From the NCBI GenBank assembly GCA_029856155.1, contig JAHQWL010000078.1, positions 1-20,564 of the forward strand: DNA of 20,564 nt, written 5' to 3'. This stretch comes from Promethearchaeia archaeon. GTDB lineage: Archaea; Asgardarchaeota; Lokiarchaeia; Sigyniarchaeales; SOKP01. Positions 2,033 to 10,089 of this stretch are shown here, in pieces. The first letter of the stretch is position 1. Each line of letters begins with the position of its first letter. The position numbers and the translations under genes are program-made. The notes under the pieces were generated by a model, which was not told the DNA's origin, did not search any database, and saw nothing but the letters and a program-made list of their open reading frames with translations.

Positions 2033-3001
2033 ATGAAATTTCCAGATTTTTCTTATATTTTTCGTAAGTATTTAAAAAAAATTAAACTTTTTATTTTAAA
2101 ACCTTCCCAAAAGCTCTTAGCTGAGAGTAAATTAGAACAGAAGGAAAAATTTAATAAATTAAAAACAAAACTTACGGATCTTTATTTGAAAGTGAAAATT
2201 GGTGACATTGATCATTTTTTAACTCCTTTTTGGAAACAAAAAGAAGAGCAACTTGAGAAAGAAATGATATATGACACTCCATTTTCGTTTTTAAGAAATT
2301 CTGATATCTGTTATACTATGTTTGTTTCAGCAGGGGGGAAATGGCTAAAGAGTGAATTAAAATACCTTGAAAAGAATATTTCACAAGTAATGTTAAAAAA
2401 ATTATTAATAGAAGACTATATTGGAGAACCTCTTCTAATGAATTCCAAATACCTTACTTCTCATAATTCTATACACCATTTATATCACTTTGTGAAGTTT
2501 TTAAATATAACAGGAACCAAATTGGATGAAATTGATACGATTATTGAATGGGGGGGCGGTTACGGAAATATGGCAAAGATATTGAGTAGATTTACCTATA
2601 ATAATAATACTTATATTATTATTGACATTCCCTTGATGAGTTGCATTCAATGGATATACTTAACAGCTATTTTGGGACCAGAAAATGTCAATTTAATTCA
2701 AAATTCAGATGAGAAAATAATAAATGGTAAAATCAACTTATTACCGATTAGCTTTTTAGAAAGATATACGATAAATGGAGATTTATTCATTTCTACATGG
2801 GCTATTACAGAGAGCTCTAAGTATTCTCAAGATTATGTATTAAAATTAAATTGGTTTAATTGTAATCATATTCTTTTAAGTTATTGTTCTAAATCGAAAA
2901 TTAAATTCCCCACCAATTTAATCCAAAATGTTGAAAATGATAAAAACTTTATAATTGAAAATATAGAATTTTTACCGAATAATAAATACGCATTTCAATA
3001 A
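2033..3001 (+). CDS. Putative sugar O-methyltransferase (SAM-dependent)
   Basis: SAM motif I-like IIEWGGGYGNMA followed by YIIIDIP and DLFISTWAITES, resembling the putative sugar O-methyltransferases of glycan loci. Context is a nucleotide-sugar cluster. Confidence 0.7.
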   Translation: MKFPDFSYIFRKYLKKIKLFILKPSQKLLAESKLEQKEKFNKLKTKLTDLYLKVKIGDIDHFLTPFWKQKEEQLEKEMIYDTPFSFLRNSDICYTMFVSAGGKWLKSELKYLEKNISQVMLKKLLIEDYIGEPLLMNSKYLTSHNSIHHLYHFVKFLNITGTKLDEIDTIIEWGGGYGNMAKILSRFTYNNNTYIIIDIPLMSCIQWIYLTAILGPENVNLIQNSDEKIINGKINLLPISFLERYTINGDLFISTWAITESSKYSQDYVLKLNWFNCNHILLSYCSKSKIKFPTNLIQNVENDKNFIIENIEFLPNNKYAFQ

Positions 3002-6588: not shown

Positions 6589-6610
6589 GATCCAATTCAT
6601 TATCTTTTTG

Positions 6611-6650
6611 AATTAAAAATAATTAAATATAATTAATTATAATTAAGTTT
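6611..6650. promoter_or_regulatory. Four AATTAA units at 10-bp spacing; candidate operator/promoter of the RHH gene
   Basis: AATTAAAAAT-AATTAAATAT-AATTAATTAT-AATTAAGTTT. Contains perfect 14-bp palindromes at 6628-6641 and 6633-6646 and ends 13 nt before the ATG. Confidence 0.4.
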
Positions 6651-6663
6651 AAAGTTTCAAAAT

Positions 6664-6903
6664 ATGAATGAAGAAGATCATAAAGTTCAATATACGACTG
6701 TTTCGATACCAAAACCTCTAGTTGAAAAGATAAAAGAGCGTATGAAGGGTACTGGATTTTCTTCTGTATCTAGTTATGTTACTTACGTCTTAAGACAAGT
6801 TTTATCCTCAATTGAATCAGAAGAACGATCTAAACAAGCTTTTACAAAAGAAGAAGAAGAAAAAGTAAAACAGCGTTTAAGAGATTTGGGATATATAGAT
6901 TAA
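6664..6903 (+). CDS. CopG/ribbon-helix-helix protein with C-terminal acidic 'RLxxLGY' tail
   Basis: Beta-ribbon YTTVSIP, helix KPLVEKIKERM, GFSSVSSYVTYVLRQVL (RHH pattern), tail FTKEEEEKVKQRLRDLGYID. Confidence 0.85.
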   Translation: MNEEDHKVQYTTVSIPKPLVEKIKERMKGTGFSSVSSYVTYVLRQVLSSIESEERSKQAFTKEEEEKVKQRLRDLGYID

Positions 6904-6955
6904 GAAATTCAATTATATTCAATTAAAATATTAACAATATACAGAGGAATATAAG

Positions 6956-8104
6956 ATGATACAACCACATGGTGGTAGTTTAATTAATAAAGATTTACCA
7001 AAAGTAGAAAAAGATAGAATTTTAAGGGAAATTGATGAATTTGAAACAATTCGAGTCAATCCTCAAATAATAAAAGTAATCAAGAACATCGCATTTGGAG
7101 TCTTTAGCCCATTAGAAGGATTTATGAATGAAAACAATTATAGATATGTTCTTGAACACATGTACTTAGAAAATAATGTTGCATGGCCTTTTCCAATTGT
7201 ACTAGATGTTCCTGAAAGAAAGGCAAATTCTTTTAATGTTGATGATAGGATTATATTAGTAGATTCAACAGGGAACCCCATTGCACTCATGGACATAGAA
7301 GATATATATGGTTATGATAAGAAGGAATTCGCAAAAAAGGTATACGGTACACTTGATCGAGATCATCCTGGTGTTGATTCCGTTTTTAAGATGGAAGAAA
7401 AGCTAATTGGTGGAGAAATATTTTTAATTAATGAACCTACATCTGTATTTCCAGAATTGGATCTCAAACCTATAGAAACTAGGGTGTTATTTAAACAAAA
7501 GAAATGGGATAGAGTAGTTGCTTTTCAAACGAGAAATCCACCCCATCTGGGCCATGAATACGTACAAAAAGCGGGTTTAACTTATGTTGATGGTCTTTTT
7601 ATTAATCCCGTAATTGGTAAGAAAAAAGTTGGCGATTTCTTAGATGAAGTAATCATAAAATCCTATCAAGTATTGATTGATGAATATTATCCTAAAGACA
7701 GAGTTGTCTTAAGTACTTTTGAAACTGAGATGAGGTATGCTGGTCCAAAAGAAGCTATTTTTCATGCTATTGCTAGAAAGAATTTTGGATGTGATCATAT
7801 TATTATTGGTCGAGATCATGCTGGGGTTGGAAACTACTATGGTCCATATGATGCCCATAAAATTTTTGACCACTTTCCTGATTTAGGAATTGAACCAATT
7901 AAATTTAGATCATTCTCAAAATGCAGCAAGTGTAATGCTGTAGTCAATGATAAAATTTGTCCTCATCCCCCAGAAATGCATAATTACTTTTCTGGAACAG
8001 AAATACGGACAGCACTACAATCAGGAAAACCTCCAGATCCAGAAGTTATGCGCCCTGAAGTCGCTAAAGTCATTTTAGAATATGAAAATCCGTTTGTATG
8101 TTAA
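6956..8104 (+). CDS. sat: Sulfate adenylyltransferase (ATP sulfurylase)
   Basis: IQPHGG, FSPLEGFM, HPGV, AFQTRNPPHLGHEY, MRYAGPKEAIFHAIARKNFGCDHIIIGRDHAGVG, CxxC...CPH zinc site, MRPEV. GAGGA SD-like motif upstream. Confidence 0.97.
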   Translation: MIQPHGGSLINKDLPKVEKDRILREIDEFETIRVNPQIIKVIKNIAFGVFSPLEGFMNENNYRYVLEHMYLENNVAWPFPIVLDVPERKANSFNVDDRIILVDSTGNPIALMDIEDIYGYDKKEFAKKVYGTLDRDHPGVDSVFKMEEKLIGGEIFLINEPTSVFPELDLKPIETRVLFKQKKWDRVVAFQTRNPPHLGHEYVQKAGLTYVDGLFINPVIGKKKVGDFLDEVIIKSYQVLIDEYYPKDRVVLSTFETEMRYAGPKEAIFHAIARKNFGCDHIIIGRDHAGVGNYYGPYDAHKIFDHFPDLGIEPIKFRSFSKCSKCNAVVNDKICPHPPEMHNYFSGTEIRTALQSGKPPDPEVMRPEVAKVILEYENPFVC

Positions 8105-8148
8105 ATAAAATTTCAATTTTTACATAAAAAATTAAGATATAGTGTATA

Positions 8149-9537
8149 ATGAACTCAAACAAGAAAAAATTAATTATTATAGGACTAGATTGCGCTGCAC
8201 CTAAAACTTTGTTCGAAGATTTCCTAGATGATTGTCCTAATATAAAAAAGATGATAGAGCACGGAGCTTATGGAAAATTGAGGTCCTGTGATCCGCCAAT
8301 TACTATCCCGGCTTGGATGGTTATGTCAACTGGTAAGAACGCGGGAACATTAGGTTTATATGGATTTAGGAATAGAAAAGAGAATTTATATGATGATTTT
8401 TGGATTGCATCATCCTACAATGTCAAAGAACCGAAAGTCTGGGATATAATAGCGGAGAAAGGTTTAAAATCTTGTATCTTAGGCTTACCTCCAACATATC
8501 CTGTTCAACCATTAAATGGTTATCTTGTCTCTGGGTTCATTACACCTGATATAACCTCAAATTATACATATCCTCCAGAATTAAAAGAAGAAATTAAAGA
8601 ACATATTGGAAAGTACATTCTAGATGTCAATTTCAGAGTGGATGATAAAACAATTTTATTGAATGAAATTTATGATATGACAAAAGTTCAATTTAAAACA
8701 GTTAAATATTTGATGCAAACTAAGGACTGGGATTATTTTAAATTTGTAATTATTGGATTAGATAGATTTCACCACGCATTTTGGAAATACTATGATAAAA
8801 CCCACAATAAATATGAAAAAGGTAATAAATTTGAAGGAGAAATGAGAAAATATTACCAATATTTAGATCAAGAAGTTGGAGAAATCTTAGATATTGTTGG
8901 TGAACATACAATTACAATGGTTGTATCAGATCATGGCGCTAAGGCAATGAAAGGTTTAGTGTGCGTTAATATGGCTCTTGAAAAGCTTGGATTACTAAAA
9001 TTTAAAACTAAACCAAAACCAGGAACAAGATTAGCAAATGCTGATATTGATTGGAATAATACTTATGCGTGGGGCTGGGGAGGTTATTATGCAAGAATTT
9101 TTCTAAATGTTGAAGGTAGAGAACCTCATGGAATTATTAAAGCTAAAGATTATGAAAAAACCAGAGATAACATCATAAAAAAACTGAAATCAATAAAAGA
9201 TAATAATGGCAATCCAATGAATACAATTGTTTATAAACCTGAAGAATTGTTTGAGGTTATAAATGGAAATCCACCAGATCTAATGGTTTATTTTGACAAC
9301 TTAAATTGGAGATCCGCTGGAACAGTAGGATATGATTCAATGTATTTAGATGAAAACGATACTGGACCAGATGATGCAGTTCATGATTGGTTTGGTGTTT
9401 ATGTTTTATATGACCCAATGAAAAAGTTGGGAAAAAATTTAGGAACAAAAAGTATACTTGACATTGCTCCAACATCCCTAAAAATTTTAGGATTTAAAAT
9501 TCCTAAAGATATGGAAGGTAATGTTATAAATTTTTAA
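8149..9537 (+). CDS. Alkaline-phosphatase superfamily protein (type I phosphodiesterase/nucleotide pyrophosphatase-like), no signal peptide
   Basis: Metal ligands GLD(14), LDRFHH, SDHG and DDAVH. Thr nucleophile in PPIT(52)IPAW. C-terminal ILDIAPT...DMEG. No CxPxR formylglycine motif. Confidence 0.88.
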   Translation: MNSNKKKLIIIGLDCAAPKTLFEDFLDDCPNIKKMIEHGAYGKLRSCDPPITIPAWMVMSTGKNAGTLGLYGFRNRKENLYDDFWIASSYNVKEPKVWDIIAEKGLKSCILGLPPTYPVQPLNGYLVSGFITPDITSNYTYPPELKEEIKEHIGKYILDVNFRVDDKTILLNEIYDMTKVQFKTVKYLMQTKDWDYFKFVIIGLDRFHHAFWKYYDKTHNKYEKGNKFEGEMRKYYQYLDQEVGEILDIVGEHTITMVVSDHGAKAMKGLVCVNMALEKLGLLKFKTKPKPGTRLANADIDWNNTYAWGWGGYYARIFLNVEGREPHGIIKAKDYEKTRDNIIKKLKSIKDNNGNPMNTIVYKPEELFEVINGNPPDLMVYFDNLNWRSAGTVGYDSMYLDENDTGPDDAVHDWFGVYVLYDPMKKLGKNLGTKSILDIAPTSLKILGFKIPKDMEGNVINF

Positions 9538-9555
9538 AAAAAAAAGAGAAGAAAA

Positions 9556-10089
9556 ATGGAACATAAAGGTTTTACAGTATGGTTTACTGGACTTCCTTGT
9601 TCAGGGAAAACAGTACTTGCAAATGCCGTTGCTGAAGATTTAAAGGCGAGAGGAATGAAAGTAGAAAGACTTGATGGAGATATAGTTAGAAAAAGTCTCA
9701 CAAGGGATTTAGGTTTTTCAGAAGAAGACAGAAACATGAATATTGAGAGAGTGACTTTTGTTGCTAAGCTTTTAACTCGTAATGGAGTTGCAGTTCTAGC
9801 TTCTTTTGTATCCCCATATAATAAAATCCGAGCATATTCCCGGAATGAAATTGGAGAATATATTCTTGTCTATGTGAAGTGTTCTCTTGAAGAATGCGAA
9901 AACCGAGATATAAAAGGAATGTATGCAAAAGCTCGAGCAGGAGAAATAAAAGATTTTACCGGAATCGACCATCCTTTCGAGGAACCTGATAATGCAGATA
10001 TCCTAGTTGAAACAGATAAACAAACTATTGAAGAAAGTAAAAATATTATATTGAATGCGTTAAATGATATGGGTTATTTATCACATTAA
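9556..10089 (+). CDS. cysC: Adenylyl-sulfate (APS) kinase
   Basis: WFTGLPCSGKT P-loop, LDGDIVR, DLGFSEEDR, NIERV, SFVSPY, RDIKGMY, FTGIDHPFEEP. Confidence 0.97.
   Translation: MEHKGFTVWFTGLPCSGKTVLANAVAEDLKARGMKVERLDGDIVRKSLTRDLGFSEEDRNMNIERVTFVAKLLTRNGVAVLASFVSPYNKIRAYSRNEIGEYILVYVKCSLEECENRDIKGMYAKARAGEIKDFTGIDHPFEEPDNADILVETDKQTIEESKNIILNALNDMGYLSH

Follow-up and report, generated by a model that had tools for sequence, protein, structure and literature searches.

Results

An RHH gene heads a PAPS operon in an Asgard archaeon

The window, by which we mean the whole stretch of 20,564 nucleotides that we analysed, comes from a Promethearchaeia archaeon with an assembly of 4.1 Mb and 30% GC, and the closest named homologues are in Promethearchaeota (Asgard) records. 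Four genes lie on one strand (+) in the order RHH (6664-6903), sat (from 6956), AlkP (from 8149) and cysC (from 9556). The first encodes a 79-aa protein of the ribbon-helix-helix (RHH) class, CopG/Arc-MetJ type, and heads an operon for PAPS (activated sulfate). It is followed by the gene for Sat, an ATP sulfurylase of the homo-oligomeric type (6956-8104; PF14306 and PF01747, E 9e-87; NF003166, 489 bits), the gene for a tail-less NPP-type enzyme of the AlkP superfamily with 462 aa (8149-9537; PF01663, E 1.8e-40; here called AlkP), and the gene for CysC, the APS kinase (9556-10089; PF01583, E 7e-60; TIGR00455). An operator-like array, in which GAATTA is followed by three copies of TAATTA with an exact 10-bp period, lies at 6610-6645 and ends 18 bp before the RHH start codon. 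In the spacer between RHH and sat, we read from the sequence two CAATTA repeats with a 10-bp period (6910-6925). Nucleotide-sugar genes are found upstream of the operon. A 322-aa ORF at 2033-3001 had no Pfam match at E <= 0.01; its EWGGGYG resembles SAM-methyltransferase motif I, which is our guess from the letters.

The operon AlkP has the threonine nucleophile and the six metal ligands of the NPP/AlkP superfamily. D14, T52, D205, H209, D261, H262 and H412 were invariant in 89 AlkP orthologues, and we assigned their roles from established knowledge of NPP enzymes. Sequence searches of the PDB found no relevant solved relative of AlkP. The nearest solved folds were those of ENPP and Xac NPP, at 12-14% identity (compared with an AlkP paralogue).

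The 79-aa protein is predicted to have an RHH fold

The protein is modelled with the RHH (Arc/MetJ/CopG) fold, in which two helices come after a strand. The AF2 model, built on an alignment of 98 sequences, reaches a pLDDT of 87 and has helices at residues 17-27, 35-59 and 62-75, with a strand region (10-16) preceding the RHH helices. In a Foldseek search with this model, every top match was an RHH protein (NikR N-domain, Arc, ParD, MazE6, PutA and also PrpA). The best was the N-terminal domain of NikR (rmsd 1.1 Å over 41 residues, probability 0.97); the Foldseek E-values were weak because the protein is small. The RHH core spans residues 10-50 (6691-6813, + strand) and consists of the strand YTTVSIP, which we take to be the DNA-reading strand, helix 1, a TGFSS turn and helix 2. 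F32 and L43 of the core are nearly invariant in alignments of the family. Searches by sequence returned less: no Pfam family at E <= 0.01, nothing relevant in the PDB, and a weak NCBIfam match to the N-terminal part of NikR (E 0.0068, which misses the cut-off). Relatives that have a second RHH at the N-terminus do match Pfam models, namely RHH_1 and DUF7557.

The C-terminal tail is a trait of the whole RHH family

The tail of the RHH family is a family-wide trait, far beyond chance. In the window it comprises residues 59-79 (codons 6838-6900) and the stop codon (6838-6903, + strand), and is made up of an acidic run, an amphipathic helix (62-75) and an LGYID end. Translation of ORF 6664-6903 gives FTKEEEEKVKQRLRDLGYID as the C-terminus of the protein and ...AFTKEEEEKVKQRLRDLGYID as a longer C-terminal stretch, in agreement with the position and sequence that the first-pass annotation had given for the tail. 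We found 808 homologues of the RHH protein. The best 120 share 87-95% identity and come from Loki-, Thor- and Hodarchaeota records, and VKQRLRDLGYID is unchanged in 115 of these 120. In the 98-sequence family alignment, L72, G76 and Y77 of the tail are invariant, a conservation equal to that of the RHH core; the tail consensus is [FLY][ST]xE[DE]EEx[VI]KxRL[RK]xLGY[LIM][DE]. An exhaustive search of cluster representatives placed the RHH family with its tail in 933 clusters at E <= 0.001. Among the 149 best representatives, 131 have LxxLGY within six residues of the C-terminus, and most of the other 18 appear truncated.

Strong matches to the tail are rare within a genome. In the 4.1-Mb source genome, the RHH protein was the sole match to the tail profile (E 1.8e-11), with the next at E 0.022. 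This second match, in a 278-aa ORF on contig C44 (EKLRNLGFIYVT, E 0.022), was dismissed as it is not C-terminal. Four euryarchaeal genomes each contained exactly one strong match. In Pfam, the tail had sub-threshold matches to the start of PG_binding_2 and to POTRA, from which it follows that helix-LGY turns exist elsewhere; that strong matches stay within a few families speaks against a motif of a generic kind.

Two general modes of recognition were considered for the tail and set aside. PDZ-like recognition of a free C-terminus is unlikely, because the tyrosine is followed by one, two or more residues. The pattern ExxVxxRLxxL resembles the MIM1 consensus, and docking of the MIM1/MIT type was put aside since, to our knowledge, the Euryarchaeota that have the RHH family lack this machinery.

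We also noted variation in the arrangement of the RHH proteins. Fusions of about 200-214 aa have an extra N-terminal RHH (RHH_1 or DUF7557) and a C-terminal, tail-bearing RHH (P0257, P0303, P0314, P0333, P0283; L198:599-1222), and one such RHH-RHH-tail fusion heads a TauE-Sat-AlkP-CysC unit. In some genomes, two tail-bearing RHH genes are close together (L021:5908-6171 and 9365-9619; L174; L177); the second of those in L021 abuts a diverged 553-aa PF01663 paralogue. Among matches that are probably on one contig, identity was 90-95% for RHH versus 71-77% for AlkP. The RHH protein thus seems to be better conserved than the enzymes of its operon, not the usual pattern for a small regulator at distances like these.

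Tail-bearing RHH genes head PAPS operons across archaea

By its gene position, the RHH protein of the window belongs to the PAPS-operon CopG family (PYCH_17520 type), members of which have 70-90 aa and are encoded directly upstream of sat or cysDN in a unit that includes cysC. The tail, with its acidic run, RL[RK]xLGY and one or two further residues, also places it in this family. The PAPS operon and the CopG regulator label are already known. In the available text of one account, PYCH_17520 is called a putative copG regulator of its cluster (Jin et al. 2021, PMC8268124), and in Palaeococcus the CopG PAP_09880, beside sat, rises together with sat (PMC6981617). The available text of the accounts of the archaeal PAPS cluster makes no mention of the tail (PMC8268124, PMC10322725, PMC6981617).

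Tail-bearing RHHs head PAPS operons in Asgard archaea, Euryarchaeota and DPANN. A scan for K[EK]RLRALGY with one genome per species found 540 sites, of which 377 were in RHH relatives. The best 80 loci are from Thermococci, Thermoplasmata, Methanocaldococcus, Methanosarcinales, Altiarchaeales and Aenigmatarchaeota; they are biased to K[EK]RLRALGY tails by the narrower search alignment, and we therefore left them out of the comparison of tail conservation. In 66 of these 80 loci, which are euryarchaeal or DPANN, sat directly follows the RHH gene. Most often the unit reads RHH-Sat-DHH-(AlkP)-CysC-sulfotransferase, and a second form is RHH-CysD-CysN-DHH-CysC-sulfotransferase. The DHH gene belongs to the type of PAP phosphatase that has been characterised in Methanothermococcus thermolithotrophicus (Jespersen et al. 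2023, PMC10322725). Set against the window (6956-10089), the loci of Thermococci and Methanocaldococcus have both DHH and AlkP, and most of those of Thermoplasmata have DHH only (L016, L044, L168). The Asgard operon has no DHH gene, unlike that of Pyrococcus yayanosii, and has its AlkP gene between sat and cysC; the NPP-type enzyme might therefore act on PAP, APS or PAPS.

Tail-bearing RHHs probably head PAPS operons in bacteria too, and the RHH-tail module may not be confined to archaea. One RHH-Sat-AlkP-CysC unit (L197:1-10216) has bacterial-looking surroundings, with PhoH, YbeY, CorC and 7TMR-HD genes next to it. In the Atlas, a cluster of look-alike CopG proteins is 75% bacterial, mainly Thermodesulfobacteriota.

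The same tail is found on AlkP-superfamily enzymes and CysC

The tail is not limited to the RHH family. A tail profile of 26 positions (A3), built from RHH tails alone, was run over 552 whole genomes and found 21 long carriers: 19 proteins of PF01663 or PF00884 and 2 CysC. On these proteins the tail was always at the extreme C-terminus, ending one or two residues before the stop. In the phylum of the window, 98 of 301 genomes had a match; about 110 matches were in frames of 64-120 aa (RHH type), and the long carriers examined were PF01663 proteins (L107, L108, L109, L112, L114, L147, L149, L157, L158) and PF00884 proteins with SGSH_C (L148, L150, L151). In a second phylum, which contains the Thermoplasmatales genome G003, there were matches in 74 of 251 genomes. 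Nine of these were long carriers, seven from PF01663, one from PF00884 and the last a CysC with a complete tail. The first-pass annotation had stated that sulfatases and AlkP-family proteins often end in such a tail, and the RHH-only profile bears this out for PF01663 and PF00884 in two archaeal phyla. When the domain partners of the tail were mapped, as that annotation had proposed, all 21 of the long carriers examined were PF01663, PF00884 or CysC. An earlier search for longer proteins with the exact tail gave only 10 candidates and nothing useful, because word-based matching is too stringent for a motif of 20 residues.

By alignment, the operon AlkP belongs to a family in which long paralogues end in the tail, and is itself a form without one. 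Its ORF (8149-9537) ends in ...KDMEGNVINF, in line with the earlier remark that the enzyme stops right after its core, and its 120 closest orthologues are all without a tail. The long paralogues extend past this end (DMxG...) through a variable linker of 30-45 residues into the tail. In an AF2 model of one of them, the tail helix (524-536) had a pLDDT of 83-91, which suggests that it is packed rather than free. Judged from the profile matches, the tail is a real, portable C-terminal module common to RHH regulators and AlkP-superfamily enzymes of sulfate-ester metabolism.

The CysC of the window (9556-10089) does end in LNDMGYLSH, as first noted, and this end is no instance of the tail, being absent from the tail-profile matches at E <= 50 in the genome. 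Among other CysC proteins, L156 (G046:C151:40300-41020) has a weaker tail-like end helix (tail profile E 5e-6). L196 (G315:C362:540-1220) has a true tail, at the end of a 205-aa open frame that finishes ...SKDDEEKIKERLESLGYL (E 1.7e-9). It belongs to an apparent RHH-Sat-CysC unit, and we found no AlkP in genome G315.

The range of carriers could be read in another way, in which the tail labels proteins for a common third partner, or pairs with other tails, and so brings together the proteins of sulfation, for example on Sat or a sulfotransferase. Every carrier is a protein of sulfate-ester metabolism, the RHH gene has Sat as its most constant neighbour, and the RHH-Sat-CysC operon of G315 has the tail on both RHH and CysC with no AlkP found, all of which speaks for a common tag. 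However, the RHH also heads operons of the CysDN type that have no Sat, the tail usually occurs once per genome, on the RHH alone (in genomes examined individually), and no candidate receptor was identified. We consider a shared tag improbable.

The tail is predicted to dock in trans in the cleft of the operon AlkP

The earlier annotation had proposed that the RHH could supply its tail in trans to the tail-less enzyme, and had suggested a multimer model as a check. We modelled one pair, AlkP (89-row alignment) and residues 46-79 of the RHH protein (98-row alignment), and the prediction placed the tail in the cleft of AlkP. The ipSAE was 0.88, 0.89 and 0.86, against 0.02 for the best of three controls, and the score was 0.00 when the tail was kept and AlkP was replaced. 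Of 80 solved complexes, 58 pass the mark used for this score, as do 2 of 110 mismatched pairs; these counts are only approximate here because we used our own alignments. The partner had a pLDDT of 70-73, and at least 93% of contacts recurred between runs. The predicted interface takes up the whole conserved tail of the RHH protein (residues 59-60, 64-65, 67-69 and 71-79). On AlkP it includes I51, F73, R74, W85, I86, Y117, P118, F130-D134, D159, F162 and R163, together with W310-Y313, A390-T392, N403-T405 and D408. In the modelled pose, Tyr77 of the tail touches I51, beside the nucleophile Thr52.

The complex model supports binding of the RHH protein to AlkP, and docking of the tail in trans in the conserved catalytic cleft is plausible. 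The AlkP interface residues have 0.87 identity to the consensus, versus 0.74 overall, and none of 10,000 random sets was as high. Against this, the interface coincides with the active-site cleft, where conservation is to be expected with or without binding of a tail, and the cleft residues are only partly common to the operon AlkP and the long paralogues in the alignment. The complex score is the model's own confidence, and it could carry over cis contacts learned from the tail-bearing paralogues. As no solved relative was found by sequence, it is unlikely that the model passed by having learned a solved complex.

The pose also allows a reading in which Tyr77 is a covalent site. Tyr77 would be sulfated from PAPS, or adenylylated, and the enzyme of the AlkP/sulfatase type would write or erase the mark, with the tail as a substrate that senses PAPS or relays sulfate. 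AlkP-superfamily enzymes hydrolyse aryl phosphate and sulfate esters as well as nucleotide diesters. The tyrosine is invariant and in an acidic context, the operons make PAPS and often encode a sulfotransferase, and the modelled Tyr77 contacts I51, next to the Thr52 nucleophile. If Tyr77 were a substrate, enzymes that have the tail fused to them would likewise process or inhibit themselves, and the regulator of the operon would read, and even relay, activated sulfate. We nevertheless think this very unlikely. It rests on a modelled pose, an NPP with a threonine nucleophile is not a typical sulfatase, and many RHH operons have neither AlkP nor sulfotransferase (L164-166).

The tail-less AlkP is nearly always accompanied by the RHH protein, and the tail is kept without AlkP

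The co-occurrence of tail-less AlkP homologues and tail-bearing small proteins, which the first-pass annotation had proposed to test, held in one direction. A tail-less AlkP orthologue was present in 72 of 301 Asgard genomes, and the RHH was also present in 70 of the 72, the other 2 being cut at contig ends. In the other direction, the RHH tail was also found where AlkP is absent. About 24 RHH-bearing genomes had no AlkP of the operon type; some of these are artefacts of contig ends (L159, L174), and others have complete operons without AlkP, either RHH-Sat-CysC (L003, L164-166, L176) or RHH-Sat-DHH-ST-CysC (L168, L169, L172). The tails in these AlkP-less operons are identical or nearly identical to that of the window. 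RHH-CysDN-DHH-CysC-ST operons (L070, L023) likewise have no AlkP and keep the tail. About 50 of the 80 best euryarchaeal and DPANN loci had no AlkP homologue; AlkP was full-length in 13 of the 80 and cut by a contig end in 2 more. With the operon AlkP as query, no orthologue was found in G003, G004, G034 or G315.

We observed distant members of the RHH family in two further settings. In an Asgard genome (L199:3388-6826; GCA_019058315.1), a 77-aa tail-bearing RHH is between two tail-less sulfatases of PF00884, and there were no PAPS genes within 5 kb. In the second (L200:1-10240), a tail-bearing RHH and a tail-less PF01663 gene are in a glycan-synthesis cluster adjoined by PriX-like and Cas4-like genes, with no PAPS genes nearby; this locus may be a mobile element or a virus.

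Presence of the tail does not depend on a tail-less AlkP. The tail is equally conserved in operons and genomes without AlkP, and a tail on the RHH uncorrelated with its lack on AlkP was part of what the earlier proposal had itself listed as speaking against it. What is left of that proposal is docking in trans as one role of the tail, which is supported by the complex model, by the co-occurrence and by the RHHs beside tail-less sulfatases and a tail-less PF01663 gene; a role limited to AlkP is not. Because the tail is equally conserved without AlkP, a role that is independent of AlkP must exist too.

A phased array upstream of the RHH gene is conserved

The array at 6610-6645 is most likely the DNA target of the RHH protein. 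In the window there were 2 matches to the array versus 0.01 expected by chance, and the perfect form with three repeats occurs only here in the 4.1-Mb genome. A phased (T/C)AATTA array of 3-5 repeats is found upstream of the RHH gene in diverse Asgard loci, and also in loci of Thermococci, Methanocaldococcus, Thermoplasmata, Altiarchaeales and Aenigmatarchaeota. Where relatives are richer in GC, the array takes the form TTAATGC...GCATTAA. A conserved array that is unique in the genome supports an autoregulator that would bind as several dimers on one face of the DNA. The CAATTA pair at 6910-6925 is possibly a second, weaker operator.

In a further reading, the tail would serve the RHH protein alone, by linking dimers on the 10-bp repeats or forming a tetramer; AlkP docking would then be an artefact and the tails of the enzymes an oligomerisation arm of their own. 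All of the RHH family has the tail, with any set of genes around it, arrays with 3-5 phased repeats point to several adjacent dimers, the tail helix is a separate segment after the long helix 2 in the monomer model, and tandem RHH-RHH-tail fusions exist. C-terminal oligomerisation helices are also known in RHH repressors, Mnt among them. However, a plain oligomerisation helix would not be expected on one enzyme superfamily and CysC alone (21 of 21 long carriers), and a role confined to the RHH leaves unexplained the RHHs beside tail-less sulfatases and the complex score of 0.88 versus 0.02, which fell to 0.00 with AlkP replaced. We therefore regard it as rather unlikely that the tail serves the RHH alone, and favour docking on AlkP together with a second role.

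Discussion

Based on these results, we propose that the 79-aa RHH protein acts as the autoregulator of an ancient PAPS operon, and that it has a phased operator, docks in trans on AlkP, and has a further tail role that is independent of AlkP. We give this account as a whole a probability of about one half. The RHH protein would bind the TAATTA array, with its 10-bp period, upstream of its own gene. Its last ~20 residues would be a self-contained docking helix for a cleft of the AlkP type. On AlkP-superfamily enzymes, the tail probably follows a flexible linker and packs in cis, going by the confidence of one model. On the RHH protein, it would dock in trans into the catalytic cleft of the tail-less AlkP, with Tyr77 beside the Thr52 nucleophile. 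The regulator and the enzyme could in this way sense each other, either because the enzyme is plugged or because the repressor is titrated as in RHH antitoxins. The docking is modelled, and we infer the DNA binding and the regulatory outcome. In its role that is independent of AlkP, the tail would most likely join RHH dimers on the phased operator or bind another protein of sulfation, and the joining of dimers is the simplest candidate.

The arrangement points to an undescribed link between gene control and the state of an enzyme. Regulators that sense a pathway by contact with an enzyme are rare and have usually been found singly. Here, one short peptide appears in two settings, fused to enzymes of a superfamily and on the regulator of operons with a tail-less member of that superfamily. 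Should the docking prove real, it would give a simple and testable rule that ties PAPS production in archaea, including the Asgard relatives of eukaryotes, to the state of an enzyme, a way to approach what the NPP-type enzyme retained between sat and cysC does, and a ready-made 20-residue peptide ligand for the NPP-type enzyme family. With a conserved operator array, the regulon can also be tested directly.

Comparison with known systems

The closest known gene cluster is the archaeal 'sulfate assimilation' cluster pych_17520-17560 of P. yayanosii, which has the gene set and order described here. In the available text of its account, the order is a copG-type RHH, ATP sulfurylase, (DHH pApase), type I phosphodiesterase/NPP and APS kinase, and that text makes no mention of the tail on AlkP or sulfatase enzymes, of an operator array or of contact between the RHH protein and an enzyme (PMC8268124).

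The enzyme partner can be compared with the NPP/ENPP proteins (Xac NPP, ENPP1-6), which have the fold and the seven metal and nucleophile residues seen in the operon AlkP and in the tail-bearing paralogues. The solved relatives listed are without the tail and have 12-14% identity to the family of the window.

The architecture and the predicted mode of binding resemble those of type II RHH antitoxins (ParD, RelB, CcdA and MazE type), in which the N-terminal RHH binds repeats in its own promoter and the C-terminal tail binds the protein encoded downstream, often blocking its active site. We considered the RHH protein as a type II antitoxin and rejected this, as there is no adjacent toxin gene and the genes downstream encode Sat, the NPP-type enzyme and CysC. 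In contrast to the antitoxins, the partner here would be a metabolic NPP-type enzyme and not a toxin, with binding that is modelled, the tail is also fused to paralogues of the partner, and the RHH persists without the partner.

NikR, with its metal-sensing domain, and Mnt, with its tetramerisation helix, combine an RHH core with a C-terminal element that tunes operator binding, as may be the case here. The RHH protein of the window differs from both in that its C-terminal element is a single 20-residue helix without a sensor domain, and in that this helix is common to unrelated enzymes.
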